DNA from: Schmidtea nova
Lineage: Eukaryota
Assembly (NCBI GenBank): GCA_044892505.1
Contig: CM097883.1
Location: 114,142,001-114,206,000 of the forward strand
DNA: 64,000 bases
Direction: 5' to 3'
Made by a program: the position numbers and the translations under genes. Shown here piece after piece: positions 16,460 to 64,000 of the stretch (within the stretch, counting starts at the first letter, position 1; each line of letters begins with the position of its first letter). Below the pieces are notes generated by a model, which saw only the letters and a program-made list of their open reading frames with translations, searched no databases and was not told the DNA's origin.

Positions 16460-16479
16460 TCCTTTCATCAGCAGCACCC

Positions 16480-21367: not shown

Positions 21368-21432
21368 AGCTTTTTTTAAAATTTCTCTATGATGTACATA
21401 ACTATATTTTGATGAATCATTTTCTTTTACTT

Positions 21433-22617: not shown

Positions 22618-22632
22618 AAAATAAGTAATAAA

Positions 22633-24773: not shown

Positions 24774-24774
24774 A

Positions 24775-26828: not shown

Positions 26829-26923
26829 GAAATAAAACTTGTTAGAAAACAATAAAACAAAATTTGAGTGACAAGATGAAACAAGATTTCAAATCAAAAT
26901 TGAAAAAATTAAATGAAATATAA

Positions 26924-42081: not shown

Positions 42082-45000
42082 TGTTGGGCCAAAACGCAAT
42101 TTGTTTTAATAAAGCGATAACCCCATAGGTAGAGAACGCGCAAGATTCCATTTTTAACCTTAGCTTCCATTAAAAAAATCCAACAATTAAGTGGAAAACA
42201 CCAAAAGGTGAAGATGAATCAAAACACAGCAACCGGTAGAATGCGCGCTAACTGCGAATTTATAAATATTTTCACTGAAATCTCGAGAAAAATTAAAAGC
42301 AGAATGTTTGGAAGTTAGAATAGGCAAAAAACCCATGGAAAGTGCCCATAAAGAACAGAAATTTGTCATAAAATCTTCAGTGCAGAAAAATTAACACAAT
42401 TCTAGAGGAAAATTGTGAATTTATCACAAAATTTCACATTTAACAATAGAAAGAATTAATATGGATCGAATATCATAAATTAAATCAAATCGAACAAATT
42501 TCGATTCAAACATAAAAATTTTTAATTAAAATAAATTATTTATAGTTTATAAAAAATTATTATACAAAAATATGGAATTAATTTTCGGAAAATCATTAGA
42601 ATTAATTTAGAAAAAATTAAGAGAAAATTCTAGAACAATTTGTTTTATTGCACTACCGGAGATAGAGAAAATTTGATGGTATATATACCGCCATCAAAAT
42701 GGCAGATTTCAGATTTTGTGGAAAAAATTTTTTTGTTTTGCTAGCTAAGAGAATTTGTGAGAAGTTTTCCGAAAATTTTTATTGCTAACCTAATTAAAGA
42801 GAATTTGTACCATTTGCCTCAGAAATTTAGAATTGAAGATATTGTGGAAAGGATTCAATTTATTGGAAAATCGGAATTGGTCAAAATTTAGTTCCCGGAG
42901 CACGAACCTTTTTAGTAGAAAACAAAATTTCTTCCTGGAGTTTGAAATGTTAGGTTTATTTTATTTTTGTTTTATTTTAAACTGATTCGAGGGGTATGGG
43001 ATCGTCGGTAATCATGCCTGTCGATCATCCCATTCCTCACGTTCGTATTATTTAAAAATGTATTATTTTTGTTATTTTATATAATGCAATTATTTTATTT
43101 TGATATTATTAAATATTAAAAATTTATTTTATTCAGTTTGATTTTGAAAATATTTTTGTTTATTATACTCACAAGTTCCCAAAACACCTAAAATTACTAT
43201 GAGAATTGTCGAAATAAACTTATGAAATTAAATAATTTTTTTTTTATCTCCCATATCTTCTGACGATCCGTCCAGCCTTGGTTGTGCGGATCTGTTAGTA
43301 GCCTGGGTGGATCGTTGTCTGATTGGTAATCGGCCAGCCCATATTTCCACTTTAAGGTGAGGCTCATACATCCAAATTCTCGTCATCCCAACTGGGGAAT
43401 CGTGGTTTGGCCAAGAGCAAGGATTTGTTATATTAATGATTTTTATTATAATAGAGTATCATATTTTCTATTATCTACATAAGCAATTTCGTAATACAAC
43501 ATAAAAATATTTCTAACTCATGTCTTGAAATCTAAAATAGGAAATATTATTGATTAAAAAATCGACTCGTACTCGCCTTCACCTTCGCACTCTCAATGAC
43601 AATCATCTTATGAGAAAATGCAAGAAAAATGGATACTAATGATGGAAAGAAAATCGCTCGAAATAATGCTCAAGTCTGGAATAATGCTCATGAAGTGAAA
43701 TGAATTGTGAAACAAGTATTGATTTGATCTGAATTAAAACTCATTATGGTCTAAATAAGTTTTCCTGTGAATCTTGTTTTTCGAGAGCCTGAAATTCCTG
43801 AGCGAAGTGTCCCGAAAAATTCGCGCGCACTTTGTTTAGGAAGCTCATGCTCAACAAAACCGAAATTTACTTCACTTGATGTTAAAAATATTCGTCGAAA
43901 AAGGTGTAACTTATTTTATTTTATTTTTTATTTTTATTTAGTATATAAATCTCTTTAGATTAAATGCATATTTAGATCTCGAAATTCATGGATAAAATAT
44001 TTTTATCAAGAATAAAAATTTGCTTTTTATTGTACTGCAAAACTTTTAAAATGAAAAATTTGCTTTTTATTGTACTGTAAAAATTTTAAAATGAAAAAAT
44101 TGTAAATCAAAAATTTTCCTAATATTGTTAATATATAAAAGATTTTATCAGTTCATAAAATTCCCGAGAATTTGAAAATCAAAAATTGTACTAAACTCCA
44201 TAAAAATTATAAATTGAAATTTTAGTATTAATAAATTTTTATCTTTTTGTAAAAATTTGGATTCGGAATTTTATAAAAAAGGAAAATTTAAGATTAATAT
44301 AGTTATCTCTTAAAATATAAAAATTTAATTTCACAAACCTATATTATCAAAATTATAAATTTTATCATCATTTAATAAAATTGGAACATTAGAAATCCAA
44401 AAAAGTAATATAAAAATTAGTATTATTATTTTAATGATTATTATTATTTTAATTTAAAAATATTTTATATAGTGTATTTAAATTATAATATAACCCCCCC
44501 CCACGATATCTTAAAAATATTAATACATCACTCATTGCAAGAAATCACACCCTTTTCACTCAATAGCATCACCCATACTAATATACAAGCAACATACATA
44601 TAAAATACAATATACACACATACACCGTATCGTTCAATAACATTCAACAATCACATGCATACAAGCAAACCATACAGAAAATCTACACCGTTAGGTTAGT
44701 TAGCATCATATATCCATAGCTCATTCAGGCACTCGCTCAATCACATCCACATCGTTTATTTTATCCAACCGACCAATGAACACACCAACACATGCATTTA
44801 TAACAATAGGAAGTCCACCACCGAACTATAAAAGAAAAAAAAACATAAACGTGATTCACCACAATAGGTATTTCCCACAAATCTATAACAAAATATAGCA
44901 GCCTCATTCACCTTCAGATCATCACCTTAGAAATTATTTTCATTCATCTGTGAACATACCTCGCTGACAATATAACTTCCAATACCACTACCCAACAGTT

Positions 45001-46399
45001 GACAATGATTTATATATACCCCACTTCATATTTTAAAAAAAATTTATAATAATAAAAAGACATTCAAGACAAAAAATTTATTGATAATAAACATCATTCA
45101 CAACAGTTCCAGAAAACAGTCTGGTAGGGATTTCCCATAAGGAAGTTGGTTCCGTTGAGGAGTAAAACAACATCCAATTTGGGTACGATTTCTCGAAAAT
45201 ATCCAATCGTACTATACGTCTGGCAGATATGAGAACGAAACAAAAAAATTAATTCCACAGAGCAACTGCCGCTTGCGACGATTGATAGATTTTATTTTTG
45301 TGGTTCCTCATCGGAAAGCTGCTGGAGAATTTTTATTTAAGCCCTCGAATTTAAAGGGAAAAGATATTGGTCTATCATAGACTTGGCATTGAACGACGAA
45401 CGTGGTGAATCTAGTGGCCTCTGAATCAAGTGATAATAAAGTAAAAATATATTGATAAATCTAAATTACCATTTTCGACGATGATAAATTTTCCAATTGA
45501 GTAGAATTTCATAATAGGAATTTGAGAGAAATTAAATAAATAAATGATAATTCAAATTGTTATCATTTACAATTGAGGGGAAATAAATTTTTCTTCTGGT
45601 TCAAACAAGAAGAATATTTCCGTTTGGTAAATTGCACCTAATTTTGTTCCAAATAAATTTAAAAATGCAAAAAATTTTTTAAATTAAATTCAAGAATTAA
45701 ATAATTTCAAAAGACCGAAATCTGATGGTTATAAATTATAAGCAAAAGTTTTACTAAATCAATTTCGTTACTAAGGCCTCAGCAAAATTTTAAAATCAAA
45801 ATATTGAAATTTTAATAAATATTTTATTATCAATTTAAAGCAAGATAGACAATAGGATTTGAATATAAATAAAGTTTACATAAATTTTAAATATAAAAAA
45901 CATAACAATTTAAGGAAATTGCGATAATGATAAAAATTTGGGTCTAAATAAGAGCAATTTGTATATTCCCAAATATATGCATTTTCTGAAGGAATAATTG
46001 ATCACCTAATTGAGTTGCGATAATATTTTCGAATGCATGCTTGCGAATAGAATAAAAGTGCTCAAATAAATTAATTGATTAATAAAGGAATCACGATTCA
46101 GCGAAAATATTCAAATAAAAATCTCGTAATAAACCTATACAGTGATAGAACAGATAAATTAAGGGGGACAAAAATGGGCAAGAAACCTTCTATCGGTAGC
46201 CCTTGGACCCAGGAGATATTCGGTCAATCATAGTTTCGTATTGACGACGCTCACTGATTGCGAATACCCACCCACTTGTTACAGTACCAACGTTACATAG
46301 TGACGGGTAACAAGGTGGTAATTTCAATGTTTTATGTGTTGAGTTGTTGATGAGAGCCATAGAAACGTCAAGGTCATATTGACGGTCAACAACCCACCA
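42082..46399 (+). repeat. Putative 5' LTR (~4.3 kb) of the giant element
   Basis: Starts TGTTGGG with similarity to the LTR B start; carries the A/B 3' block at 46150-46360; ends CCCACCA 10 nt before the PBS. Confidence 0.6.
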
Positions 46400-46409: not shown

Positions 46410-46427
46410 TGGGGGCTCAGCCGGGAT
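46410..46427 (+). promoter_or_regulatory. Primer-binding site, tRNA-Pro type
   Basis: TGGGGGCTCAGCCGGGAT, 16/18 identical to the classical tRNA-Pro PBS TGGGGGCTCGTCCGGGAT. Confidence 0.85.
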
Positions 46428-47819: not shown

Positions 47820-48185
47820 ATGGAGAAAATTATAAAAATATAAAAATATAAAAAATATAAAAATACAAAAATATATGTATAAAAATGGCTGAATATTCTG
47901 TTAGTTAAAAATATAAAAATATAAAAATATAAAAATACAAAAATATATGTATAAAAATGGCTGAATATTCTGTTAGTTAAAAATATAAAAATATAAAAAT
48001 ACAAAAATATATGTATAAAAATGGCTGAATATTCTGTTAGTTAAAAATATAAAAATATAAAAATATAAAAATACAAAAATATATGTATAAAAATGGCTGA
48101 ATATTCTGTTAGTTAAAAATATAAAAATATAAAAATATAAAAATACAAAAATATATGTATAAAAATGGCTGAATATTCTGTTAGT
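47820..48185. repeat. 64-72-bp tandem repeat (5 copies) in the element leader
   Basis: tggctgaatattctgttagt at 47886, 47958, 48022, 48094, 48166. Confidence 0.9.
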
Positions 48186-48331
48186 AGTAGTTTTGAAAAA
48201 TACAAAATATATAAAAAATTATAAAAATTCGTGTACATAGATGTTGAAGTTTTTAATTTTTATTTTCGTTCAAATTATAATGAATGGTTAATTCAAAAAG
48301 TTGTAAACACCAGTCATCATGAATATTTTAG

Positions 48332-48814
48332 ATGGAATCGATTGAGCATATTTTACTACGAATCGAGTTGTTTTTCGATTTTAAAAATGACCCATTGCAG
48401 GTGTTGAGCGAGAAACTCGAACGAGTAAATGGAATAAAAGATGAATTATTGTTGAATCCTAGACCACAACCTGAGAATCTAATAGTGATTGCAGGAGTTG
48501 TAGGAACAACAAACGATATTTCGTTAGAAACAATTTACGAATTACAACGATTGCGACTGAATAATCCGAATTTTAATCTGAAAATACAAGAATGGATTGG
48601 TAAAATCGATAAAATCATGGACAAGCTAGAGAGATCGATAAATCAACAGATCGATTCGTTCGAAAGATGTTATATTTGTCGACAAAAAGAAGCGAACATT
48701 TTATTCATGCCATGTGGGCATTTGTGTTATTGCCAGCCGTGCTCTAGAGAAATAAAGAGGTGCGTAATCTGCAAACAGACAATTGATGACAAAATCATCG
48801 TATTTTGTTCGTAA
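48332..48814 (+). CDS. C-terminal RING finger protein (IAP/MDM2/LRSAM-type RING), probable E3 ligase
   Basis: CYICRQKEANILFMPCGHLCYCQPCSREIKRCVICKQTI. Confidence 0.85.
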   Translation: MESIEHILLRIELFFDFKNDPLQVLSEKLERVNGIKDELLLNPRPQPENLIVIAGVVGTTNDISLETIYELQRLRLNNPNFNLKIQEWIGKIDKIMDKLERSINQQIDSFERCYICRQKEANILFMPCGHLCYCQPCSREIKRCVICKQTIDDKIIVFCS

Positions 48815-49836
48815 AGAATGTCGATTCGAAATAAATGTTTTAGTCATGTTGAATATCGTCGATCATCCAGTACTCCAAATCGTCGTAAAAATTAAATAAA
48901 CACAGAACACTAGGTAATTAATGATTGAGAGTCGTGTAAAAACATAACAAGTAACGGCTAATGCCGAAAAATCAAACATTAGGAAAATGGGAATTTGTGA
49001 CAAAGTTACTTTTCTTTTCTTTTTGAATTTTCTTTAATATTATTATAAATCCTCCTCATCATTATTATATCGATACAAATTTCATTACTATAAATCTTCC
49101 TCATTACTGTTATTATATCGATTATCATTATTATATCGACCATTAGGACGAGCAATAAGTAGAGTAATAAAAATTGATTTTATAAGGAGAATCTTCTGAA
49201 ATAAGAGCGATAAATGAGTGTCTGAGTAGGAAATGGGAAAATAGTACACAAATTCATAACTGAGCTATCAAAAGATAGTACGACAAATTTTAATAGAGCT
49301 ATCAAAAGATAGTACGCCAATTTTTTTTGTGACAAAAGATAGTTTGTAATAAATGGGAAAAACTTGATTATCCTGAAGAGAAAAAGTAGAATAGGTTAAC
49401 CATCGCAAATGTCGATAAATTTCGTTTGTGACTGATCATCACAAATTGCGAAACAAGTTGACGCGATTATTTTACGATTTTGAATTAGGTGAAAGGGCTA
49501 AACCCGTAATGTTCGTCTTATACACCAGTTTGCCAAGGCATGATTGGTACACTGAGGTAGAAGGCAGTAACATGAGTAAAGAGAAAGTTGCTGAGAAAAT
49601 CAGATGCAGATTTTAGAAAGTCGAAAGAGTAAAAAGTGAATTTCGATGATTATAGTAGATGATAGTATAATAAGAAAAGATTCTACCATGGTAGTTAGGG
49701 AATTGATTCGTAATTGAGAAGTAGTAGAACAATTTGAGAAAAACAGTCAGCAACAGCGAATTTAGTTAAAAATTTGAGAATAGGGAAACGAGTGATTGAA
49801 TAGCATAAAGAGAATAATCGAAGACGGCCGAGAAAA

Positions 49837-50408
49837 ATTGAGAAACTTTGAGAGTTCATGTATGTGAGAGACTTTGAGAGTCCAGATAATTGAGAAACTT
49901 TGAGAGTTCATGTATGTGAGAGACTTTGAGAGTCCAGATAATTGAGAAACTTTGAGAGTTCATGTATGTGAGAGACTTTGAGAGTCCAGATAATTGAGAG
50001 ACTTTGAGAGTCCAGATAATTGAGAGACTTTGAGAGTCCAGATAATTGAGAGACTTTGAGAGTCCAGATAATTGAGAGACTTTGAGAGTCCAGGTAATTT
50101 AGAGACTTTGAGAGTCCAGATAATTGAGCGCTCTGGGAGAGACTTTGAGAGTCCAGATAATTGAGAGACTTTGAGAGTCCAGATAATTGAGAGACTTTGA
50201 GAGTCCAGATAATTGAGAAACTTTGAGAGTTCATGTATGAGAGACTTTGAGAGTCCAGATAATTGAGAAACTTTGAGAGTTCATGTATGAGAGACTTTGA
50301 GAGTCCAGATAATTGAGAAACTTTGAGAGTTCATGTATGAGAGACTTTGAGAGTCCAGATAATTGAGAAACTTTGAGAGTTCATGTATGTGAGAGACTTT
50401 GAGAGTCC
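49837..50408. repeat. ~26-bp minisatellite with two alternating variants
   Basis: gagagactttgagagtccagataatt and gagaaactttgagagttcatgtatgt repeated about 20 times. Confidence 0.92.
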
Positions 50409-51175
50409 AATGTTTGTGGATATTGTTGAGAAATTTAGGAAAAACGTTTGAGAGATAGAATTAAATAAAACTGCGCAGAAAAAATTTTGTTATGACAGAG
50501 AAAAACATTGAACGCGAATACTTAAGGTGTAGTAATACAAACCGTTAATAAGAGCAGATAAAAGACATCGAGAAATACTTAGGAAATAAAATAATGGCCA
50601 TGAATAGATAACGAACAAGACATTTTTTCCTCAAATGCCGAGATGAGTATGATCATACTGTTATTATAGTATTAGTAATATTATTATTATTGTTACTATT
50701 ATTATTATTATTATCAGGGTATAGATAACTGATACGACCATATAGATAATTATTACGAGATATAGATAATTTAAAATCTGAGCTCAGAGTAAAAGGGGGG
50801 TAAATGGCGTCGATGAAGAAGCGATATTTTTATTTAGATTGTCCAACAGATCAAAGCCAAGCCAAGAGATAGTCAAATCAATCAGTTATTGAAGAGGTAT
50901 ATATAGAAGAAAAGAAGAAAAAGAAGTCTAATTGAAAAGGAAAGAAGTAAAAGAAAATAAATCAAAGAAGATCCAATTGAAGATAAAAGAAAGATCAGCA
51001 ATCGATATTAAACACAAATTGACAATATTACCAAACCAACCAAGTTCGTAAAGTCGAAAGATAAAGAGTCAAATCTATTAAAAACGACGAAAGGAAATTA
51101 AAAAGAAATAAAGCTGATAAATAAAGAAGTAAAATCCACAATATTAGAAAGTTTGTAGCCGATTTTCAGAAAGAA

Positions 51176-54100
51176 ATGGAGGAGAATCAGAAAGTTACCA
51201 GTGCAAACTCAGAAGATAATTTATTAAAAGAAGAGCAGAAAATAACCAGTCCAAAGGTAGAAGATAATTTGCAGGAAGAAGAAAAAGAAGTAATAACAAT
51301 GAAAATGCAACTACAACAGAATATCGAAGGAAAAGTAAATGAAATGATAACCGAATTATCAGACGTTGAAATTGAAAGAAAGGGAAATGTATATGAATTT
51401 TCAGTAAAAGATATGGAGGGAGAAGAAAAGAAGAAGTTTGTGGAGAAATATAACCGAAAAAGAAGAGAAAGAAGAAGCAATGATGATACATGTAGCATGG
51501 ACGAGAAATGGGATGAATCTACGACAATCAAATTAGAAGAAGTGGCACAAAGATTGTTAACAATTACCATGGAAGAAATGACGAAAATGGATCAAAAATC
51601 AGAAGAAAAAAGAAAATCAGCAAAACTCGAAAGATCAAGACAAACGGAAACGTCAAAGACCGAACGATTAATCAGTAACCTAAGCAAGAGTGCAGGAAAT
51701 CAATGTGAAACAACAACTGAATTACTAAAATGGGTTATAAAAAATAGTGCAAATATATCAAATATGAGATTGATAGTGAAAGAAATCGAGAAATGCAGAC
51801 GTTTATGCCCTTGGTATTCAACACAATTTGATGACATCATGAGAAAATGGAAACAACTGGAACAAACAAACGATGATCCACAGATGTGCAGATTGAAAAT
51901 TCAGTTTCCGAGTCTAGAAGAAATAAAGATGAATGTATCATTAACAACAAAGATCAAAGAGATAAAAGAGAGATTACCATTCAATTTACCATTTCACTTG
52001 AAATATGATGGAGAATCGCTGGATGATGATATAGAAATCAGTGTAACCCCGATACAAATCGAAACAAGTAATAAATTAACTATTGATAAAATTGCAGGAA
52101 GCGAGTTGACCAGAAAAGCGAGAGGTGAAGATAATCCCGAAACAACGATAATTGCAATGATGAAAACTCCAGCTGGACCAACACTTACAATTAACATCGA
52201 GGTTAATGGTGTGAAAGTTGACGCGATGATAGATACTGGCGCAAATATATCAGCAATAGATATTGATATGATACCAGAAATGTTACGGTTATGCATCGAG
52301 AAAACATCAGTAGACGTAATAACATGCAGTAAAGAATCTGTCGATATCGTTGGAAAGATATGGACAGACATCGAATACAGAAATGTAAAAATATCAACTT
52401 ATTTGACAGTAATAAAACAACTGGGTGCATCATGCATTATTGGAACAGACTTAATACCAAAACTGTTAAAAGGATCTGTAATTGATTTGAATACGATGAA
52501 GTTGAAACACCAAATTGAAGAAAATTGCACAAGAGAAACAGCGACAGAACAATCAAATCAAGAAATGACCAGAAAAGGACAAGTATGTATGTTTCGAGAG
52601 AATAAAAATGACGATTGGCTACATCGTATATTAACTGCGAGCAGAAAAGTAAATCAGCCGACAACAATATCTGAACAACCTAAGATAGTTGACGATGTAA
52701 AAATGGAGCACCGCAAAAAGATGGAATTGATCATTGAGATTACCAAAGAAATTATGCCAGAATGGTCACAAAGTAAAAATCTATTTGAAATATTGGGAGG
52801 AGTAAGCTTAATGGTTGAGGAATATGCCAAAGGAAATGAAACGACAGAAGCGATGAATACCATAAAAGAAAGATTACCAATATTATTTACAATTGCCAGT
52901 TTTAAAGATGAGATACCGTTATATCACGCAATAAAAAGTGGGAATGAACAGAGAATGTTTGAAATCATAAAACTCATGGAAAAGTGCAAGCAACATACCA
53001 ACACGAAAAACTGGAAAGATCAAACACCCTTGATGGTAGCAATTGAAAAAGGAGGATCCAAGAAACTCATAGCAGAACTGATGAGAACCGGATCAAGTTT
53101 TAAAGAAAGAGATGATAAAAATGAAACGGTGTTATCTTATGCAGTGCAAGCAAATAACCATCAAATAATCAAATATATTATGTCAAATGCTACAGAAGAA
53201 GATATTGAAGTGCTCAGTTCAGATCCAAATCCATTAGTAAATGCAGTGAACAAAGATGCCGACGAAACAACAGCAAAAATGATTAAATGGTTACATCCAG
53301 TTACGCACGAAGGAGTGATAAATGTCAATGACAGATTTGAAGACGGTGAAAATATGATAATGAAAAGAGCCATGAAAAGAAAATGGAAAATGTATAAAAC
53401 GATTAAAGCATTGCTGCGAAGACCTGATTTCAGATTTACAAACAACAAAAAAGAAAAAGAAAGAATTGGATCTAAAAGACATGAATTATATCAGCAAGTT
53501 ATCATATGGAAAGAAAATATAAAAGAAAGCAGAATTCACCGAAGCTGGAACAACGCCAAAGATGAAATAACCAAGAGAGCAAATATAAAAGCCGAAGCAG
53601 ACGAAATAGCTAAAAGATATGAAGAAATAATAAAATTAATAAATGTCGAGGACGACATTTTAAACAGAACCGAGGGTGGTTCTGATGATCACAATGAGTC
53701 TGACGATGAAGGTGAAGAGAATAACAACAACAAAACAAAGAAAGATGACAATGAGAGTATCAACAGAAACAATGACAAAGACGAGAAAGATGATGGAAAA
53801 AGCAATAACGACGAAATTGGGAACAAAAGTGATGAACCCAAGCAAGAAACTTCAAACTATGAAAAACGAACAGCATGTCTACATAAAACTCGAATAAAAG
53901 ACATAATATTACTGATATTGATGCTGTCAGCATTGAAAGGAACGGAAGCTGATGACAAGAGAAAACCAGTACAAGTATTAACACAAGGAGCAGATAATGA
54001 AGAAGCATGTTGGAGTAGCATCAACTTGCAAAGTAAAGGAGATAACCCAGTCAAATGTCAACGAGCAGAAGGAGGAGAAATCCGAATAAATGGATTAAAA

Positions 54101-54286
54101 CGAGAAACAAAATATAAAATCTGTGTTTACAAAAAGAAAGCAGCACAAAGATTGTTTAGAACACTCGTACGCCAGATAGTAGCACATAATGGTTCAAAAG
54201 TCACCCAAGAAGACATAAAAGTCATATTAACCGACGAACTAGATGAGAACATCAGAGTGTCGTCGAAACGCAAGCTGCCGGAATAA
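51176..54286 (+). CDS. 1036-aa polyprotein: acidic N-terminus, ubiquitin-like domain, retroviral-type aspartic protease, ankyrin repeats, acidic linker, internal signal-like segment
   Basis: UBL-like RLKIQFPSLEEIKMNVSLTTKIKEIKERL...HLKYDGESLDDD; INIEVNG...IDTGA...IIGTDL; ANK-like PLYHAIKSG, TPLMVAIEKG, TVLSYAVQAN; IILLILMLSALKGTEA. Confidence 0.85.
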   Translation: MEENQKVTSANSEDNLLKEEQKITSPKVEDNLQEEEKEVITMKMQLQQNIEGKVNEMITELSDVEIERKGNVYEFSVKDMEGEEKKKFVEKYNRKRRERRSNDDTCSMDEKWDESTTIKLEEVAQRLLTITMEEMTKMDQKSEEKRKSAKLERSRQTETSKTERLISNLSKSAGNQCETTTELLKWVIKNSANISNMRLIVKEIEKCRRLCPWYSTQFDDIMRKWKQLEQTNDDPQMCRLKIQFPSLEEIKMNVSLTTKIKEIKERLPFNLPFHLKYDGESLDDDIEISVTPIQIETSNKLTIDKIAGSELTRKARGEDNPETTIIAMMKTPAGPTLTINIEVNGVKVDAMIDTGANISAIDIDMIPEMLRLCIEKTSVDVITCSKESVDIVGKIWTDIEYRNVKISTYLTVIKQLGASCIIGTDLIPKLLKGSVIDLNTMKLKHQIEENCTRETATEQSNQEMTRKGQVCMFRENKNDDWLHRILTASRKVNQPTTISEQPKIVDDVKMEHRKKMELIIEITKEIMPEWSQSKNLFEILGGVSLMVEEYAKGNETTEAMNTIKERLPILFTIASFKDEIPLYHAIKSGNEQRMFEIIKLMEKCKQHTNTKNWKDQTPLMVAIEKGGSKKLIAELMRTGSSFKERDDKNETVLSYAVQANNHQIIKYIMSNATEEDIEVLSSDPNPLVNAVNKDADETTAKMIKWLHPVTHEGVINVNDRFEDGENMIMKRAMKRKWKMYKTIKALLRRPDFRFTNNKKEKERIGSKRHELYQQVIIWKENIKESRIHRSWNNAKDEITKRANIKAEADEIAKRYEEIIKLINVEDDILNRTEGGSDDHNESDDEGEENNNNKTKKDDNESINRNNDKDEKDDGKSNNDEIGNKSDEPKQETSNYEKRTACLHKTRIKDIILLILMLSALKGTEADDKRKPVQVLTQGADNEEACWSSINLQSKGDNPVKCQRAEGGEIRINGLKRETKYKICVYKKKAAQRLFRTLVRQIVAHNGSKVTQEDIKVILTDELDENIRVSSKRKLPE

Positions 54287-54480: not shown

Positions 54481-55929
54481 ATGAAAAAACTAGCCAGTAT
54501 AATTGTCCTATGCTCCGTATTCAACACCTTATCAAGAAACAATGCAGAAGAATACTTTTTCAGCACAACAACAGCTAATCAGATTGCCTATAAAACAATT
54601 GAAAAGAGACCTAAAAACTCCTATGAAAACATTCAATTACATGTCCTATTGACAAGCTTATCCGGAACATTGCTATATTTAACAAACGACGATGGTAATC
54701 AATTAATTTTAACCCTCTATAATGAAATCAGTGAAAGAATGAAGATAGAATACAAAGAGCTTGATTATGTTGTAGAACTTTGCGAGTTATGCCAAGATCA
54801 AAGCACCAGCGAATGTGAATTGTACAAATATCGATCAATCAAAGTAAATATCAAGATTGCAGATAAACTCGCTGTCAAATGTAACCAAGGCAAGGAAACA
54901 TTCTTTGAGTATGGAGAAAAACAAATTACTAAAACTGATTACCCAACGATAAAGGAAATTGACAAAACAACAACACTTATCTACGTCATGAACACACCTC
55001 AACATGACAAAGGATACCCCAATCCTGAACAATTACAAGGTTGTGTGTATAAAGTGGAATACAATAATAAAACGCTGAAAATGGAAAGGAGCAGTGAAGA
55101 GATAAAAAACGAATGTCGAAAAATATGTACAGACAATATCTGTAATGAAGGTAAATGTTATGAAACATTTTCCGAGAAACCTATCTGTAATTGTAAATTT
55201 ACCCCAAAAAACGGTCGGTACTGTAACACCAGCAGCATTAGCCGGAAATACCGAAGAATCAACGCACAAAAGCAAACACTTTGGATAGATTATGTAAAGT
55301 TATTAATAAATAACAACTCGAAGGAGCTAATTTTTGAAATGGAGAACAAAGAATCCAGATTGTACATACGGAGAGAAAGAGCATCAATTACAGTCAAATA
55401 TGAAAACAAGAAAGACTGGTATATAGAAGGCTTTTTGGCCAACCAGGTTGATGAAGTCAAACTGATAATAATAGGCATGAAGTTCACGGAGAAAGGAATC
55501 CATTTCCATATTATCAATCAGAAAACCGAAATCTCAAGAGAAATGCCTGTTTTAGAAAAGATGAATGAAATACCTTGGAAACTTATAACGATTGCAGATA
55601 GTGTAGAAATGATATATAAGATACACCATTCACGGTACGATTGGTGCAGTACTGACATGGACGAAATTAGGAATAATGACAGAACATGTGCGGAAATTGA
55701 AGTAGTTCCTCCAACGAACGAAGCGAGAAGCCTAACAATGAAAAAGTTACCAATGGAGACAAATTATAAGATCAGTCGTCAAACATTCGTCAGTACATTA
55801 GTAATAGAAATTATAATCCTAGTCACCGGAACTATTGGAATTTTTGTCCTCGTATACAAGAGAGCAAAACGGAAACTCGAACAACGAGTAAATATGATTT
55901 TGGAACAAGTTCATATGACCCCAGTATAA
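54481..55929 (+). CDS. Type I membrane protein with an EGF-like domain
   Basis: Signal peptide MKKLASIIVLCSVF; CTDNICNEGKCYE...CNCKFTPKNGRYC; TM LVIEIIILVTGTIGIFVLVY then KRAKRK; ends TPV. Confidence 0.8.
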   Translation: MKKLASIIVLCSVFNTLSRNNAEEYFFSTTTANQIAYKTIEKRPKNSYENIQLHVLLTSLSGTLLYLTNDDGNQLILTLYNEISERMKIEYKELDYVVELCELCQDQSTSECELYKYRSIKVNIKIADKLAVKCNQGKETFFEYGEKQITKTDYPTIKEIDKTTTLIYVMNTPQHDKGYPNPEQLQGCVYKVEYNNKTLKMERSSEEIKNECRKICTDNICNEGKCYETFSEKPICNCKFTPKNGRYCNTSSISRKYRRINAQKQTLWIDYVKLLINNNSKELIFEMENKESRLYIRRERASITVKYENKKDWYIEGFLANQVDEVKLIIIGMKFTEKGIHFHIINQKTEISREMPVLEKMNEIPWKLITIADSVEMIYKIHHSRYDWCSTDMDEIRNNDRTCAEIEVVPPTNEARSLTMKKLPMETNYKISRQTFVSTLVIEIIILVTGTIGIFVLVYKRAKRKLEQRVNMILEQVHMTPV

Positions 55930-56078: not shown

Positions 56079-56714
56079 ATGAATCCGAACAACGAGAATC
56101 AAAGTTATCAAACATCAGTTCCAACGTTCAATGAACCATCAAATCAAACTCAGTTTCCAGAAGATACCAATATACGAGAAAGAGAAGGGTCACTGCAAAC
56201 CCCAGTAATCGAAAATGAAACGCAAAATCCAACAATTGACGATAGAAATCTGATATACCAAGTCGAAATTCCACTATTTGATGAAACCATGAACCCAATT
56301 CAAACGACATTCGTATTAAATCAACAACCAACAAATAGCCAGACTCAATCAATATCAGCTCCGATGGTTTATCAGCAGACAATGACGCAAGAGTTATCAT
56401 GGAAAACGCAATGTGAATTATTAAGCAGGATGTTGAATCAAGCCTATGCACAATGGAAAAACGAACAAGCTTTGTTAACAGAAAGTGTAAACAGAAATTT
56501 ATCATATCTTGCTAAAATGGAAGAACAACAACAAATGATAATCCAAAAGGACCAGAGAATTGAATGGTTAACAAGACATACGGAGTGGCAAACAAACGAA
56601 ATTAGAAGATTGAATGAGACGCGAGAAGAAGTCAGAGCATGGTATAACTGGTTAGACAATTTTCCAGAACCGGTTCGAGAACCTGACTCGACGGGAAGGG
56701 ATGAACTATTATAA
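56079..56714 (+). CDS. Q/N/T-rich disordered plus coiled-coil protein
   Basis: Open frame; first ATG 2 nt after a CAG acceptor (track starts at TTG 56070). Confidence 0.7.
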   Translation: MNPNNENQSYQTSVPTFNEPSNQTQFPEDTNIREREGSLQTPVIENETQNPTIDDRNLIYQVEIPLFDETMNPIQTTFVLNQQPTNSQTQSISAPMVYQQTMTQELSWKTQCELLSRMLNQAYAQWKNEQALLTESVNRNLSYLAKMEEQQQMIIQKDQRIEWLTRHTEWQTNEIRRLNETREEVRAWYNWLDNFPEPVREPDSTGRDELL

Positions 56715-56808
56715 AAATTTAAAACCAGTGTAAATAAAATGTAAAAATGTGAATATGAATAAAACTTGGTATAAAGAGCAAAACGAAAAAATTATAAATT
56801 TTTTTAGA

Positions 56809-58212
56809 ATGCAGACCGAGAATCAGCAGAAACAAGAAGAATTGATCGAACTATATCAGATACTACAGAGACAACGGATAGAACCAACAGAATTTCAAGA
56901 AAGATTTAAATGTAAAGTATGTAGAAATTTATTGATAGAACCCAGACAAACTGAATGTGGATGTCGAATATGCACTAATTGCGTGATGAAAATAATACGA
57001 ACTAAGCAGAAGCTATGTCCTGAATGTGGTGAAGCAATAATAGATCAATTTGACCAAACCAGACCAGATATCGCAATGAATCGGGAAATTATGAACGCAG
57101 CAACAACCTGTCCAAATAAACCATGTGTATGGAGTGGGCCAATAAAATGGATCGCCAAACACCTTTATAATTGTGATGGTACGAAAGCCAAATGCAAGTG
57201 GTGTGAAGAAGAAATGTTGAAGAAAGTCAAAGACAGTCATGAGGAAATGTGTGAACAACGACAGGAAATCTGTGAGTTTTGCAACGAAACAGACGCTTGG
57301 ATAGTGTTAAAAGATGAGCATTGGAATATAGAAGAAGGGCAAGTATGTGACGAGTATGAAGGTAATTGTAATCAATGTGGAATGGCAGAAAACGTGAAGC
57401 TAAAAGAACATTGGGAAATATGCGAAAAGAAGCCTACTGCATGTCCACTAAAATTATTCAATTGCAAAGTGAGATTACCAAAAGAGGAAATACAAAAGCA
57501 TGTAGATGAAAATAGTGTCAATCATTTGAGAACCGTTGTGGAAGCTATTGGAGCAACCGCACTGGTAATTGGAGAAGCCAACACAGAAATAAAATCTCAC
57601 AAAATCATGATACAAGAGATGTTGGATACGAGAGGAAACTTTGAAAGAATAAAAGAACAAATGATCCAAAAAATGATACTATTAGACCAGAAAATAGCAG
57701 AAATATCAACAATCCAACAAAGGTTGGAAAGCATATTGCCAGCAATGGAAGAACTACCCGTCACACCCTACTATTGGAAAATCACAGAATTTACAGAGAA
57801 ATTGAGACTAGCAAGAGAAGGAGGTCAACGTGTATGGACAAGTCCACCTTGTCACAGTTGGAAACATGGTTTCAAGCTTAGATTCAAAGTATATCTAACG
57901 GGAGACGGACTAGGAGCCGGAACTCATTTATCTGTATATTTTCAAATATGTAAAGGAGATTATGACGATTGGTTAGAATGGCCCTACGATTGCGATATAA
58001 CTATGATGATCGGAACAAAGGAAAACAACGTTCGGGAAGTATTCAGACCAAACTTGAAGAAGGTAGAAGCAGCTTATAGGAAGCCGATCGAAAACTACAA
58101 CGTAGCTGTAGGAAATCCACGTTTTATTGCATTACATTATTTAACCACAGAACAATCATTATATTTGGTAAATAATATCCTGTATCTGATTATCGAAGTG
58201 AGGAAGCCGTAG
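56809..58212 (+). CDS. TRAF: Full-architecture TRAF (RING, TRAF Zn fingers, coiled coil, MATH)
   Basis: CKVCRNLL...CGCRIC...CPEC RING; CPNKPC, CEFC, CPLKLFNC fingers; YYWKITEF...SPPC...YLTGDGLGAGTHLSVYF...DDWLEWP MATH domain; ATG 56809 preferred over GTG 56749. Confidence 0.95.
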   Translation: MQTENQQKQEELIELYQILQRQRIEPTEFQERFKCKVCRNLLIEPRQTECGCRICTNCVMKIIRTKQKLCPECGEAIIDQFDQTRPDIAMNREIMNAATTCPNKPCVWSGPIKWIAKHLYNCDGTKAKCKWCEEEMLKKVKDSHEEMCEQRQEICEFCNETDAWIVLKDEHWNIEEGQVCDEYEGNCNQCGMAENVKLKEHWEICEKKPTACPLKLFNCKVRLPKEEIQKHVDENSVNHLRTVVEAIGATALVIGEANTEIKSHKIMIQEMLDTRGNFERIKEQMIQKMILLDQKIAEISTIQQRLESILPAMEELPVTPYYWKITEFTEKLRLAREGGQRVWTSPPCHSWKHGFKLRFKVYLTGDGLGAGTHLSVYFQICKGDYDDWLEWPYDCDITMMIGTKENNVREVFRPNLKKVEAAYRKPIENYNVAVGNPRFIALHYLTTEQSLYLVNNILYLIIEVRKP

Positions 58213-58432: not shown

Positions 58433-59602
58433 ATGACTGAAAGGAAGATCGTGAAAATACGAGAAGATGACAGATCATTCAAAAGTTTATGCGAATTAAT
58501 GAAAAGAGGTAAAGAAAAGATGTCAAAACCAATTACCTCAGAATTGATTTATTGTCAATTTACACGAACAATATCGAATGTTCCCAAGGAAAGAAATTAT
58601 GGCAAATTCAAAACTATCGATGAAACGTTGAAAAATGAGAACCGAAGATATATAACCTTTTTACAACAAGACAATTTCTATGAGAAGCAATACAGAAAAT
58701 TCGCCAAAGATGGTTTGTATTTTGCAGGGACAATTGAGAAACCCGATAAAGTAACCTGTGTATTTTGCAGAATTGAAATAGAACCTTGGAGAATTAACGA
58801 TGATCCACTAACAGAACATAGAAAACTTTCACCCACATGCCAGTTTGTGTTAAAGGCATGCGAAAAACTAAGAAAACCAACATCAATGAACAACGACAAA
58901 GAAGAAAAACCCAAAATAGTAACGATAACTTCAACAGGTCCAGCAAAGATACGATTCATAGAAATTGATCCAAAATATACGATTAATGGGAGAACTGACA
59001 CCTTTGCAGATAAAAAGATGGGTATCAGATTAGCAATAGAAGGTTTTTATGCAATAAATGAATCAACAGCTGAATGTTCAGAGTGTGGAATACAATATCA
59101 ATTACCAAAAGAGGAAGGAGAATACCTGAAACACAACGAATATTGTAAATATGGAGAAGAATTATATGAAGACGAAGAACCGATCAATTATAAAAACCCA
59201 GAGATGCCTGTTAATGAATTATTAGTAGATAAGATATTAGACGAACCACGAACTCAAAAGGTAATGGAACGCACCGGCAAAAGCGAAATATTTGTGAAAG
59301 AAGTTGTCAGAGAGAGATTGAGAAGAAATGGAGAAACATTTGGATCAACCCTAGAATTTTTCAAAGCTATGATACAGTTCACCAGAAAATCCCAAGTTGT
59401 CAACCCAGAATCATGTATCAAGAAAGTTATATTAAATAAACACCCCTGTTCAATCTGTTGGATAAAGAAAGTGGAAGTTATTCATTTACCATGTGGACAT
59501 CTGTTGGCATGTGAAAATTGTAGCAATAAATTGAGATTGTGCTCAATGTGCAGGAAACCGGTCGACAAACGGATCAAGGGATTCCGTTATGCCGATCAAT
59601 AA
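58433..59602 (+). CDS. IAP: Inhibitor of apoptosis (one canonical BIR, one degenerate BIR, C-terminal RING)
   Basis: FAKDGLYF...DKVTCVFC...W...DDPLTEHRKLSPTCQF; RTDTF...EGFY...AECSEC...HNEYC; CSICW...LPCGHLLACENC...CSMCR. Confidence 0.95.
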   Translation: MTERKIVKIREDDRSFKSLCELMKRGKEKMSKPITSELIYCQFTRTISNVPKERNYGKFKTIDETLKNENRRYITFLQQDNFYEKQYRKFAKDGLYFAGTIEKPDKVTCVFCRIEIEPWRINDDPLTEHRKLSPTCQFVLKACEKLRKPTSMNNDKEEKPKIVTITSTGPAKIRFIEIDPKYTINGRTDTFADKKMGIRLAIEGFYAINESTAECSECGIQYQLPKEEGEYLKHNEYCKYGEELYEDEEPINYKNPEMPVNELLVDKILDEPRTQKVMERTGKSEIFVKEVVRERLRRNGETFGSTLEFFKAMIQFTRKSQVVNPESCIKKVILNKHPCSICWIKKVEVIHLPCGHLLACENCSNKLRLCSMCRKPVDKRIKGFRYADQ

Positions 59603-59736: not shown

Positions 59737-61284
59737 ATGAATATACAACAATTGATAGACATCCTAGATCAGGAGATGGCCAAAAGACAAGAACAACTAA
59801 ATCAAATGAGAAATTATGAACAAAGAATGGAAGCCATCCAAGAGAACGTTAAAATGATTGAGAAACGAACCCAAGAGATCAATAAAATAAAAGAGGAAAA
59901 TGAGGAACTACGAAAAATAATAATCGACAAGGCACATATCGAAGCTGAACTAGACAATTATAAACGAGAGTACAGGGAAATGGAGAGAAAACTCGAGCAC
60001 GAACAACGGAAGTCGGTACCGTTGAAAAATCAAGCGAGATTAAGAAAAGAGGAGCTCGAAACTTATAAAAGAGATACCGAAACAAGGTACGACAACACCA
60101 TAAGATTCTATCAGCAGCAACTCGAAAGTGAAAGAAACAGATATGAAGCCATGAAAAAGAAATGGGAAAAGTGTCGAGATGAAGCATTTGTTTTGAGAGG
60201 ACAACCTCAAAAGAAGCTTAAAGTCAGAACAAGAAACATTGAACCTGAAAGCGAACAAGAAAAGATCATTAGAAAGGTTAAAGCAGAGGCTAGGAAATGG
60301 AAACAAGAACACCAAGATTTATTGGAAATGGCTCGACACAGAAAAATGCTACACGAAGAATTACTAAGACGGAGAGACGTTCAAATCGAGGCTCTGAAAG
60401 AGGAATGTCATTGGTATGCAGACATACGTCATGAGGAAACGGAGAAACTCAGAAAAGAAATATTCCAGTTGAAAACGAGCGGACAGTTCAGAGAAAGAAG
60501 CATAAAGCATCAAATAAAGTGGCTAATAGAACAAGCCAGAACATGGAAAAAGACCTGGAAAAGAACTCGAGACGAACTACGAGAATTTCCAAAGAAGCTG
60601 ATGTCGATAAATGAAGCAGAATTGTGGGAAAATGCAGAAAAGCAAGAAATAGAAAACAAAGAATTAAAACGACAAATTCAATTAAAAACTGAATGGAATC
60701 AAAGGAGAATGAAATTTACCAGGAATCAAGAAGCTCGTATCAAATATCTGGAATTCGAAAATAGGCAATATGATCAACAAAAGAATATGGATGATAGAAG
60801 TATTGAAGAATTGACAATCGAATTGACTATTGCAAACCGTGAAGTCAACGGATATCGAGGAACAAATACTCATAAAGATATTGTCATTCAACACCAGCGA
60901 AGGCAGATAGAAGAGACAAAGGCCGAATGTGAGAAAGCGATCCAGCAATCGCAGTATGAGATTGAAATGGCTATCCAAAGTTTGGAAGAAAATCGCCAAA
61001 ACTATGAAAGAGAGATTGAAAGGTTGAAAAATATGGAAAATACGAGAGAGCTCGAGATAGAAAAGGAACAGCTGAGTGAAGAACTCGATTATATGACCTA
61101 TTTGCTAGATGAAGAGATAGAAATCTCAAGAACTTTGCGAGAGAGAGTTCAGAGCCTACAAAATCAACCTCCAATAATTCTATGGCCACTATATCCAACA
61201 CCAATACAACCTGTACATTTGGAGCAAGAAAATCCTCAAATCGAAGATGAAGGGTTCGGAGAAATTGAAGAGACGTTTGTATAA
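59737..61284 (+). CDS. 515-aa long coiled-coil protein
   Basis: Intact ORF, E/K/R/Q-rich heptads throughout, ends EETFV. Confidence 0.8.
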   Translation: MNIQQLIDILDQEMAKRQEQLNQMRNYEQRMEAIQENVKMIEKRTQEINKIKEENEELRKIIIDKAHIEAELDNYKREYREMERKLEHEQRKSVPLKNQARLRKEELETYKRDTETRYDNTIRFYQQQLESERNRYEAMKKKWEKCRDEAFVLRGQPQKKLKVRTRNIEPESEQEKIIRKVKAEARKWKQEHQDLLEMARHRKMLHEELLRRRDVQIEALKEECHWYADIRHEETEKLRKEIFQLKTSGQFRERSIKHQIKWLIEQARTWKKTWKRTRDELREFPKKLMSINEAELWENAEKQEIENKELKRQIQLKTEWNQRRMKFTRNQEARIKYLEFENRQYDQQKNMDDRSIEELTIELTIANREVNGYRGTNTHKDIVIQHQRRQIEETKAECEKAIQQSQYEIEMAIQSLEENRQNYEREIERLKNMENTRELEIEKEQLSEELDYMTYLLDEEIEISRTLRERVQSLQNQPPIILWPLYPTPIQPVHLEQENPQIEDEGFGEIEETFV

Positions 61285-61523: not shown

Positions 61524-62099
61524 ATGAGATTATTGAAGCAAAGATCAGAACCAAAACAACAAACGATATCAAAAGAAAGATTCAAAAAATGGAAAAGAGC
61601 AACAGAGCAATATTATCAAGACCAAATAGACCAATTGAAGGAAGTAGTGAGCAAAGATAGAAAATATATCGCACAAATGGAGCAAGAGTGCGAGACGATG
61701 GAAATAATCAAGCGAGAAAATTATCTATTTCGCCAACAAAATGGTCTCACTCAAAAATATTGCGACAGACAGAAGCAAGAGATTGACAGACTCAAAAGGG
61801 AAATAAGCAGTGAACAGAACACTGATAATAAAAGGAGAATTACGATCGAGTCATTACAACGATCATTGAAGAACAAACAGAAAAAGATTATAAAAAGAGA
61901 GAAACAGATAATAAAGTTGAAAAGTGAAATCATCGAAGCAAAGTTTGATACGTTCAAAGCAAAGAAAGTTGTAGAAATCAAAACGGCAGAAAATTACGTC
62001 CTCAAAGAACAAAGGCGAAAAGAAGCAGACGAGATTGCAAAAATGGGAAACTGGAAGCCAGAAAGTCCGTTAAAGCTAAATGAAAAGATGAAAGAATAA
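61524..62099 (+). CDS. 191-aa basic coiled-coil protein
   Basis: Intact ORF after a TAG acceptor. Confidence 0.75.
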   Translation: MRLLKQRSEPKQQTISKERFKKWKRATEQYYQDQIDQLKEVVSKDRKYIAQMEQECETMEIIKRENYLFRQQNGLTQKYCDRQKQEIDRLKREISSEQNTDNKRRITIESLQRSLKNKQKKIIKREKQIIKLKSEIIEAKFDTFKAKKVVEIKTAENYVLKEQRRKEADEIAKMGNWKPESPLKLNEKMKE

Positions 62100-62192
62100 A
62101 ATATATCCAAACTCATGTAAATACCCCTGTAAATAAAAAAGAGAAAATTTGAAAAATCATTAAACAAAATTGAATCTATAAATCTATAGAAA

Positions 62193-63017
62193 ATGAGCAA
62201 TCTAATGAGGATCACAACAACCATCATGATATTTATAATTACAAACTGCCGAAGCGAAGAAGCATTGAGTCAATGTCAAGCAAGCCATCCATTTAGAAGA
62301 TACGATAGCATTTGTGTAAGCTATCAAGAAATTTGTAGCACCAGAAATGAGGAGTGTCAGCAAATCCAACTACAATGTCAACAATGTCCTAAATCCAGAG
62401 AAGATTCAATCACCATCCTTAAACAATTGAGAAATGAAACTCAACAATTAATCCAACTACAAATCTCCTTAACCAAAAGAAACAATCTTCAACTAAAGAA
62501 ACAGCTCGAAAACCAATCATCCTTCAAACAGTTAACGACCGAACTAAAGAAATTGAGCAAGTTAATAGAAAAATCTCTAAATAATAAAGATGAAGTTAAT
62601 GAGGAAAGATCAAGTTTCACAGAGGAGTTAAATCAAAAACTAAAAACTCAACTTCATCAGACCGAGAGAATTATAAAGCAATTAATATTACCCGAAAAGC
62701 AAAAGGAGATTATCCCTAAACAAGGATCAACCAATAAGGACGTCAGAGACCGAGAAGCAGCCATCACAGTCGTTCTACAAGGCATCAGTCTTTTCGCGGT
62801 CATAATGATCCTTAGCATTGCTGCATCAATCGGATTAGAAAAAATGAAATTAGAAAAAGCGAAAATCCAGCTGAATACCATCAAACGAATCACCCATGAA
62901 GACAACAACCCGTCAGAAAATTTTCTAAGATCAATATTTGAAGATCCAGTTCCAGAACAGCCTAATTCTGAGACATCTACAACCTCGGTGCAGATGAATT
63001 ACTTCTATAAACAATAA
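62193..63017 (+). CDS. Type I membrane protein with Cys-rich N-terminus and coiled-coil ectodomain
   Basis: Signal-like MRITTTIMIFIITNC; six Cys; heptads; TM AITVVLQGISLFAVIMILSIAASIGL. Confidence 0.75.
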   Translation: MSNLMRITTTIMIFIITNCRSEEALSQCQASHPFRRYDSICVSYQEICSTRNEECQQIQLQCQQCPKSREDSITILKQLRNETQQLIQLQISLTKRNNLQLKKQLENQSSFKQLTTELKKLSKLIEKSLNNKDEVNEERSSFTEELNQKLKTQLHQTERIIKQLILPEKQKEIIPKQGSTNKDVRDREAAITVVLQGISLFAVIMILSIAASIGLEKMKLEKAKIQLNTIKRITHEDNNPSENFLRSIFEDPVPEQPNSETSTTSVQMNYFYKQ

Positions 63018-63213
63018 TACGATTCGATACCCCTTTTGACAAGTCATGTATTTTCTTCCATTCATTTGATCTATCTATCTATTTGTATTCTCATCTTTAA
63101 CAATATCATCATTAAATCATAACCCTGTGTAAAGATCGTAACGCCTTTGTAAATAACAAAATTATTTATCGTCATTATTCAAATTCTTTCTATTAGAAAC
63201 ACAAAAATCAACA

Positions 63214-64000
63214 ATGAAATCGTACCGAGAAGTTTTCCTAATCGCCATGATCACAACAATTTATTGTCATCTCGAAGAAACCCAGAAATCAAGCCAATTA
63301 AGCCCAAATCAACAATGTAATAAAGAACCATTGGAAATCTCTAACAACAAACAACTATCCGAAAAGATTGAGCAAGCCAAAATCGAAATTCAAAATACCC
63401 TTTTCAATCAAAATGATGAAATTTCAGGTCTAAAAAGAATAGCAAGGATAATATTAGCCGATTTAGCGATCAGAGATACATTCGAGGATATCTTTGATAA
63501 TGATCGAGAAACCCGTGACGTAATAAAAAGTCTCACCAAAGAACTTAAAACGAATATAGGCAAGTTAATCGATCAGCTAACGATAAATTCATCAAGTCCG
63601 AAATGTCTGAAACAAATCCAGAAAATTCATCATAACCTGTCCCAGCAGATTTCCGAAGTAGGAAACCAAACGGCACAACAACTAAGAAAGGCTTATTTCG
63701 AAAGCCTGACATTTAAGAATAAAATCCACAATCACATAAACGAGATATCGAAACCGGATAACAATCAAGGCAGAGACAAGTGCAGAGCACCCCTCCTATC
63801 ATCCAAACGAATTCTCGATATCTGCCTGATCATCCTTAACTTTTTCCTAATAATCGGAATTTGTGGTATAATACGGTTAGGCTTGACCGCCAAAAGAATG
63901 ATGAACAACATGACCTCCGAACAATCCAGAAGAAAAGATGACAAGAAACAGTTGATCAATACCGAGTCATTCAAACTATTCCAGTCGAAGATCCAACCAA
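63214..64000 (+). CDS. Type I membrane protein, 3'-truncated by the window edge (not in the ORF track)
   Basis: Manual translation MKSYREVFLIAMITTIYC...; TM ILDICLIILNFFLIIGICGIIRLGL; no stop before 64000. Confidence 0.75.
   Translation, partial: MKSYREVFLIAMITTIYCHLEETQKSSQLSPNQQCNKEPLEISNNKQLSEKIEQAKIEIQNTLFNQNDEISGLKRIARIILADLAIRDTFEDIFDNDRETRDVIKSLTKELKTNIGKLIDQLTINSSSPKCLKQIQKIHHNLSQQISEVGNQTAQQLRKAYFESLTFKNKIHNHINEISKPDNNQGRDKCRAPLLSSKRILDICLIILNFFLIIGICGIIRLGLTAKRMMNNMTSEQSRRKDDKKQLINTESFKLFQSKIQP

Follow-up and report, generated by a model that had tools for sequence, protein, structure and literature searches.

Origin of a ubiquitin-like, protease and ankyrin polyprotein

The question raised by the locus described here is whether an open reading frame (ORF) that joins a ubiquitin-like domain (UBL), a retroviral-type protease and ankyrin repeats encodes a relative of the ubiquitin-directed protease Ddi1/DDI2, a self-processing polyprotein, or the leftover of a mobile element. 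The ORF, of 1,036 amino acids (aa), lies in a stretch of 64,000 nt of Schmidtea nova (contig CM097883.1 of assembly GCA_044892505.1, positions 114,142,001-114,206,000), referred to below as the window. The original prediction, made from the letters alone, had placed it in the position of gag-pol and left the choice between self-processing and a DDI-like function. The ORF is very probably a shortened remnant of a Burro1/GYPSM1-type polyprotein, carried by a family of about 1,500 copies that is likely copied by a helper, with a protease that is predicted to free the modules fused to it. In the following, the satellite is the Gag-less long terminal repeat (LTR) family to which the window element belongs, and the helper is the intact Burro1-type family of the same genome.

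The helper was found through a MATH search as one frame of 4,706 codons, and its polyprotein of about 4,900 aa has the order Gag, zinc knuckles, MATH, Env, protease, reverse transcriptase (RT), RNase H, integrase, ankyrins and fn3. The genome searches listed the best 150 matches, and those to the helper RT stretch were all of 100% identity, many in frames of 4,992-5,018 codons. Burro1/GYPSM1 has been described as a protein of 4,873 aa with Gag, three knuckles, Smc, MATH, a PF11976 UBL and BCL2, followed in the same frame by Env, protease, a dUTPase-like domain, RT, RNase H, integrase and ankyrins (PMC6431247). Because the domain order and length match, the helper fits the Burro1/GYPSM1 type, these two features and not a published Burro sequence being the basis of the assignment.

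Four colinear blocks of the window ORF were recognized on the helper polyprotein: aa 45-141 (46%) on the coil after Gag, aa 105-314 (46%) on the helical domain and UBL after MATH, aa 311-455 (64%) on the protease, and aa 451-986 (40%) on the integrase tail, ankyrin module, acidic linker, signal and first FN3. Since the blocks are separated in the helper, the UBL/protease and protease/ankyrin contacts are deletion joints, and since the ORF is colinear with a retroelement polyprotein, it descends from a retroelement and not from Ddi1. The adjacency of UBL and protease corresponds to the loss of BCL2 and Env, about 1,150 residues; also lost relative to the helper are Gag with the zinc knuckles, further UBLs and MATH, the dUTPase-like, RT, RNase H and integrase parts, and most of the FN3 membrane tail. 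The features of the ORF are as follows.

51176..54286, + strand: the 1,036-aa ORF, an in-frame remnant of four segments of a Burro1-type polyprotein
51308..51598, + strand: coiled region, aa 45-141, 46% to the helper segment after Gag and zinc knuckles, not capsid
51638..51871, + strand: four-helix domain, aa 155-232, predicted local distance difference test (pLDDT) 76-90, 42% to the helper domain that follows MATH
51884..52105, + strand: SUMO/ubiquitin-like domain, aa 237-310, 65% to the helper
52151..52165, + strand: probable protease site 1, aa 326-330, at the inherited Env/protease border
52160..52513, + strand: retropepsin, aa 329-446, with DTG at 52232 and the G-x-D motif intact
52583..52597, + strand: probable protease site 2, aa 470-474, at the inherited integrase/ankyrin border
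52676..53455, + strand: ankyrin module, aa 501-760, a helical cap and 4-5 repeats (repeats from 52907), 53% to the helper
53666..53860, + strand: acidic low-complexity linker, aa 831-895, 22 D/E in 65
53873..53950, + strand: probable protease site 3 (aa 900-904, a looser match), then a signal-like hydrophobic stretch
53951..54283, + strand: FN3-like repeat, aa 926-1036, the single leftover of the FN3-array membrane protein of the helper

The absence of gag-pol, as originally predicted, was found in four satellite copies (the window copy and three others, their 5' LTR starts lying partly outside the stretches searched), where the helper Gag, zinc knuckle, BCL2, Env, dUTPase-like, RT, RNase H and integrase queries gave nothing at E<=0.1. 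The helper Gag, Env, RT, RNase H and integrase had no match in the 10-kb stretches of 40/40 satellite copies, in all of which the UBL/protease and protease/linker junctions are continuous.

Domain content

Most of the domains that had been proposed by eye were recovered. The protease has a Pfam RVP match at aa 339-430 (24.5 bits, cut-off 20.7), and its DTGA, expected at 52232, begins at aa 353. Instead of three to four ankyrin-like repeats, four were delimited by eye, beginning at aa 578, 614, 649 and 683, with a doubtful fifth at 722 (Pfam Ank_2 at aa 582-672, E 7e-10). Such an ankyrin array lacking the IkB degron is what a viral IkB mimic would have, and DSG, which we take to be the degron motif, is absent from the 1,036-aa protein. 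The acidic linker and the internal signal-like stretch are likewise present, the latter, at aa 907-921, being the sole hydrophobic stretch of the ORF. The N-terminus is not an ordinary capsid-like Gag, an outcome that would have spoken against the prediction, since its coil is homologous to the post-Gag segment of the helper.

The UBL, a call made by eye, was borne out with moderate strength. The Pfam Rad60-SLD match at aa 239-285 has E 0.03 in the whole protein and 7e-4 in the isolated domain, still below the cut-off. An AlphaFold model built on a 4-sequence alignment gave a beta-beta-alpha-beta-beta pattern at aa ~237-305 with pLDDT 34-67, and the top Foldseek rows of this model were nearly all SUMO, ubiquitin, NEDD8 and LC3 (lowest E 4.4e-3, no row reaching 0.001), so that a beta-grasp (ubiquitin-like) fold of aa 237-310 is moderately supported by the modelling. 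The C-terminal di-glycine is absent, with no GG near the domain end. The four-helix domain gave generic helical matches only in the structure search, and VIA-align of the helical and UBL model covered the helical part alone, with generic bundles (best Z 9.5). A single-sequence fold of the whole ORF was unusable (pLDDT 38), and public protein searches returned generic ankyrin proteins or nothing (in one search, among the best 150 of 2,662).

The small Cys-containing C-terminal domain proved to be FN3-like, with a weak Fn3_ELFN match (E 0.16, isolated domain); it aligns with the first repeat of the helper tail, which itself has a Pfam fn3 match (E 0.0025). The transmembrane anchor is absent from the satellite tail, which is probably vestigial.

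Mobilization by the helper family

The window element has the following ends.

42082..46399, + strand: 5' LTR, 4,318 bp, TG...CA
46410..46427, + strand: sequence like a primer-binding site (PBS), 10 nt inside the 5' LTR, identical in the helper family

The 3' LTR lies just past the window edge, the two LTRs are 99.977% identical, and the element measures 26,575 bp in total with a target-site duplication AACG (4 bp); it was inserted recently. With LTRs, PBS, target-site duplication, many young dispersed copies and no RT or integrase, the satellite has what defines a non-autonomous LTR retrotransposon, and its size (26,575 bp with 4,318-bp LTRs) agrees with that of the giant Burro-type elements (~25-30 kb, multi-kb LTRs). 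A masked stretch at 46681-47058 (378 nt) is too small for RT and integrase. The PBS-like sequence of both families is presumably that of tRNA-Pro.

The LTR end with the PBS has 2,129 matches genome-wide and the satellite-spelled protease DTG motif 1,536, with 0 for the control in each case. The helper-type motif has 316 matches, the helper spelling being seen by eye in 78 of the first 100 listed, which gives about 250 helper against about 1,540 satellite copies, or about 1 to 6. At full length throughout, the roughly 1,500 satellite copies would account for up to about 3% of the genome (copy number x length).

Between helper and satellite, the LTR start is 95-97% and the LTR end 97% identical, the spacer and PBS are identical, the 3' flank with the first 160 LTR bases is 94% identical, and the leader is also common. 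LTR pairs are 99.9-100% identical in the satellite and 99.7-99.9% in the helper (one copy measured), and therefore both moved recently. Thus, the helper shares PBS and LTR termini with the satellite and was active at the same time, as is expected of a non-autonomous element and its helper, and by these sequence features the intact Burro1-type family likely mobilizes the satellite. Four more helper copies, each about 30 kb, encode a single polyprotein and lack both a separate TRAF gene and a BIR match. Two env-bearing families (about 3,070 and 3,400 aa) were rejected as helpers, having LTRs of 0.9-1.1 kb, other primer sites and proteases of 26-30% identity. The dUTPase search of the genome was uninformative.

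The coding blocks of satellite and helper differ by a synonymous divergence (dS) of 1.0-2.2 (Nei-Gojobori, near saturation), but the leader RING gene differs from that of one helper copy by a dS of 0.13, and therefore an old split was apparently followed by a recent leader exchange. The leader RING identity to the four further helper copies is 95.6% in 1/4 and 64-70% in the other 3.

Selection among the satellite copies

The ratio of amino-acid-changing to synonymous variants (omega) was taken from 40 of the first 47 copies in order of position, 7 close neighbours of another copy being skipped. A first sample of 30 copies was discarded because its selection, by protease identity and long frames, made it biased. 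The private (singleton) variants are near neutral (omega 0.72), whereas the shared ones, which unlike the private have passed through replication, give 0.41 for the whole ORF. This value is unevenly distributed: it is 0.26 for the protease (p 4e-5), 0.13 for the ankyrin module (p 3e-13) and 0.40 for the N-terminal coil, with the p-values being optimistic for the reasons weighed below, while the UBL (0.69), helical domain (0.58), acidic linker (0.88) and signal with FN3 (0.67, p 0.06) have no significant constraint. Purifying selection thus acts on the protease and the ankyrin module among the satellite copies. The protease is also the part of the ORF most conserved against the helper (71% identity, omega 0.12). 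The ORF is cut at aa 960 in 3/40 copies.

Self-processing and the proposed mechanism

A short hydrophobic word recurs at the borders of the helper polyprotein: after Gag, at Env/protease, at the protease end, at RNase H/integrase, at integrase/ankyrin and before the signal. Its homologues are kept in the window ORF and have changed little across the copies, and therefore the protease is still flanked on both sides by a probable cut site after the deletions. At site 1 (aa 326-330) the five residues are each unchanged in 39-40 of 40 copies; at site 2 (aa 470-474) they are unchanged in 38-40 of 40, except the Cys (26/40). With the protease under purifying selection and the border motif on both sides, the self-processing half of the original alternative stands as likely, as far as it can be read from sequence, while the DDI-like half is not supported.

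In the mechanism proposed, the satellite would be transcribed from its own LTR, and the helper Gag and Pol would package, copy and integrate the full-length RNA, as the common cis signals suggest. Spliced messages would likely yield the 1,036-aa protein, whose protease would dimerize and cut at the three inherited sites. The predicted products are a coil-helix-UBL part, the protease, the ankyrin module with its acidic tail, and the signal with FN3, which is without the membrane anchor of the helper. The ankyrin module would be the product kept by selection and the protease would be kept mainly for its release, possibly also aiding the maturation of helper particles. Together with the TRAF and inhibitor-of-apoptosis (IAP) cargo described below, the ankyrin module probably keeps the host cell permissive or alive during the copying of the element. 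A wider reading, in which a two-component, virus-like partnership divides the capsid, envelope and copying enzymes (helper) from host control (satellite, with its ankyrin effector, TRAF, IAP and secreted or membrane cargo), and which includes expression of the cargo from spliced messages, leader swapping with the helper and supply by the satellite of the protection from apoptosis reported for planarian stem cells with Burro1, is offered tentatively and is itself rather doubtful.

Weighing of the alternative explanations

Several observations weigh against the satellite reading as a whole. The best PDB sequence matches of the protease are Ddi1 chains (E 0.034); in the phylogeny that had been suggested as a check, the clade of the ORF, helper and sister proteases was recovered with a support of only 86/79, and the approximately unbiased test did not reject a grouping of the ORF with the host Ddi1 clade (p 0.24, with Ddi1 on a very long branch). 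As to selection, a stop or a frameshift-size indel is present in 16/40 satellite copies, 24 nt of the protease motif served to choose the copies, and the p-values are optimistic, because the copies recombine and their variants, scored relative to the window copy, are not independent of one another. The strict border motif was tuned after having been seen; one helper copy has 6 occurrences where 0.35 would be expected, but in the window ORF it finds site 1 alone (P 0.07), and three other families show no enrichment of it. Beyond the best 150 matches there may be a closer, rare autonomous parent, and a sister autonomous family, which shares the LTR 3' end too (89% over 237 nt), could be a second helper. 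Translation and cleavage of the ORF are themselves predictions.

The first of these points bear on the idea of a Ddi1/DDI2-like protease, in which the UBL would stay attached and steer the protease to ubiquitinated or SUMOylated host substrates, whether by descent or by convergence. The UBL does precede the retropepsin directly, and the isolated protease is above the PF09668 cut-off (29.6 bits vs 26). However, the host Ddi1 reaches 148 bits with this profile and other retroelement proteases of the genome 32-45; the identity of the window protease is 71% to the helper protease and 56% to the sister one but 24% to the host Ddi1, and the Ddi1-like adjacency arose through the deletion of BCL2 and Env. 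Besides, the helical domain lies upstream of the UBL and not between UBL and protease, the place of the helical domain (HDD) in Ddi1; about 18 residues, including the near-invariant probable cleavage site, separate UBL and protease; the UBL is not significantly constrained; and for Ddi proteases, in the part of the source available, self-cleavage is not reported and the HDD stays attached (PMC7072860). A Ddi1-like protease is therefore highly improbable. Hardly more credible is a purely parasitic deletion derivative, whose ORF would be a leftover without function and whose low omega would reflect ancestral constraint, mutation bias or constraint on the RNA. It would agree with the broken copies, with the unconstrained UBL, helical, linker and FN3 parts and with a cargo content that differs between copies, but the shared variants of these Gag/Pol-less copies are strongly depleted of amino-acid changes in the protease and ankyrin parts while singletons are near neutral, the four fused segments remain in one frame despite the divergence from the helper, and a splice acceptor of its own precedes the start codon of the ORF. 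The strongest of the rivals, though still unlikely, is that the protease is kept chiefly for Gag-Pol processing of the helper in shared particles, as in a semi-autonomous element (cf. the Gag-Pro of wheat Sabrina), with ankyrin release secondary. The conservation of the protease against the helper and the border motifs common to both, which make cross-cleavage plausible, speak for it; against it, a protein without Gag has no evident route into particles, the helper encodes its own protease, and constraint among the copies is no weaker on the ankyrin module than on the protease. The shortened Burro1-type polyprotein in a helper-copied satellite is therefore retained as the explanation.

Cargo genes and expression signals

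The inner region of the window element has ten ORFs, the 1,036-aa ORF and nine further genes, together with an intron.

48332..48814, + strand: leader RING-finger ORF, 160 aa, zf-C3HC4_3 E 9e-14, common to the helper
51129..51169, + strand: 41-nt GT...AG intron, ending 6 nt before the start codon of the 1,036-aa ORF
54481..55929, + strand: 482-aa signal/EGF-like/transmembrane protein (EGF by eye), in 3/40 copies
56079..56714, + strand: 211-aa protein, omega 0.27, with a homologue in the sister autonomous family
56755..58212, + strand: TRAF, whole (RING, zinc fingers, MATH), in 28/40 copies, omega 0.15
58433..59602, + strand: BIR-RING IAP gene, in 28/40 copies, omega 0.35
59737..61284, + strand: 515-aa charged, probably coiled-coil protein, in 39/40 copies, omega 0.12, the most conserved cargo
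61524..64000, + strand: three more cargo ORFs of 191 aa, 274 aa and 264 aa (the last runs just past the window)

A BIR match and a separate TRAF gene are both absent in the 5/5 helper copies read. The 515-aa protein has no Pfam match, and the 274-aa and 264-aa proteins each combine a transmembrane helix with a signal-like N-terminus. Other elements also carry small relatives of the 274-aa protein as cargo, and one of these elements has a degraded Gag-protease with no RT frame seen.

The 41-nt intron is exactly missing in 8/60 genomic copies having both anchors (76 loci given), and its joint is present in 3/4 sequencing runs, which look like DNA and give no measure of expression level. From the precise loss in genomic copies it follows that spliced RNA was reverse-transcribed, perhaps only once; a microhomology deletion was rejected as the cause, both 6-nt repeats remaining. 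Between 48332 and 64000 of the window, YAG occurs within 6 nt upstream of 7/10 ORF start codons vs 66/408 other ATGs (p 3e-4), and TGTA in the 100 nt after each stop at 3.1 vs 0.43 per 100 nt in the ORFs. These signals suggest that the row of ORFs is probably operon-like and resolved by splicing and polyadenylation.

Tandem arrays in the leader, at 47779-48299 and 49784-50445 (72-nt and 26-nt units), are present in the helper too and are candidate packaging or promoter elements. The polypurine tract is absent before the 3' LTR, where a short GC-rich hairpin-like stretch, identical in the helper, is found; with the PBS 10 nt from the 5' LTR, plus-strand priming of both families may be unusual.

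Related elements and surroundings

At its end, the helper polyprotein has a type I membrane protein with a signal, FN3 repeats, a transmembrane helix and a short tail; the Burro section of PMC6431247 makes no mention of this protein or of FN3 repeats. In the sister autonomous family, the integrase is followed by two ankyrin blocks, and genes for TRAF and for 211-aa-like and 515-aa-like proteins lie downstream (30-38% to the satellite cargo); the satellite may be a mosaic of helper and sister lineages. In the autonomous env-bearing families read, one to three UBL-like segments lie between Gag and Env. Another repeated family joins HSP70 and ubiquitin pieces, after a calmodulin-like start (by eye), to a BEL/Pao polyprotein; one copy has the LTR end and PBS of the satellite, the other adds HECT, and over 100 ubiquitin-like matches lie in long frames of varied length. 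Elsewhere in the window, fragments at 14720-30301 resemble by eye Polinton/Maverick genes (integrase, packaging ATPase, DNA polymerase B), and an ordinary gypsy element with identical 114-bp terminal repeats is nested in them at 16346-20304.

Comparison with known systems

The UBL, protease, ankyrin, Smc-like coil, MATH/TRAF and BIR of the satellite are all listed for Burro1/GYPSM1 (PMC6431247), and each domain of the ORF except FN3 is already described in Burro. Unlike Burro1/GYPSM1, the satellite is without Gag, Env and all Pol but the protease, has no single polyprotein such as the helper has, carries four remnants in one 1,036-aa frame with TRAF and IAP as separate genes, and outnumbers the intact family about 6 to 1. 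What is new is a Gag-less, protease-keeping, cargo-rich satellite that outnumbers its helper and has an IAP gene which five helper copies lack. No description of a non-autonomous Burro family was found in the literature searched, although pol-less derivatives of Burro may already have been described in Grohme 2018, in Lee 2026 or in the supplements to them. According to a summary of Lee 2026, the B-IAP of Burro1 guards planarian stem cells from apoptosis (PMC13465017). The satellite likewise carries a BIR-RING IAP on a Burro-type element; as far as this summary goes, it differs in that the gene, known here from sequence, sits in a non-autonomous family (28/40) and not in the five helper copies. 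Should the IAP cargo aid host stem cells, which is what has been reported for Burro1, the satellite and not the helper would provide this benefit, a testable division of labour.

[quoted passage not shown] With them and with TR-GAG (PMC4350172) the satellite shares the lack of RT, high copy number, an intact ORF, the PBS and LTR ends of the helper and long persistence. Those elements, in the parts consulted, keep Gag with or without protease, as do the coding non-autonomous LTR elements compared, whereas the satellite dropped Gag and every other structural and copying gene, and retains the protease, accessory domains and nine further genes. The protease and host-signalling domains are thus retained under selection across about 1,500 copies, and the satellite amounts to a natural deletion scan of the Burro polyprotein, in which the ankyrin module, TRAF, IAP and the 515-aa protein were worth keeping, and the UBL and FN3 tail are marked as dispensable.

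For the ankyrins of PSCNV, a planarian nidovirus, a role as IkB mimics has been proposed, and planarians have RHD-ANK proteins, according to the sections seen of PMC6211748; compared by description only, both PSCNV and the satellite place a short ankyrin array within a protease-processed polyprotein of a planarian genetic parasite. Ddi1/DDI2, as partly consulted (PMC7072860), share with the window ORF a UBL upstream of a retropepsin fold, but the window protease is of gypsy polyprotein origin, with another domain order, probable self-cleavage and 24% identity to the host Ddi1. Therefore, a UBL joined to a retropepsin is not diagnostic of Ddi1.

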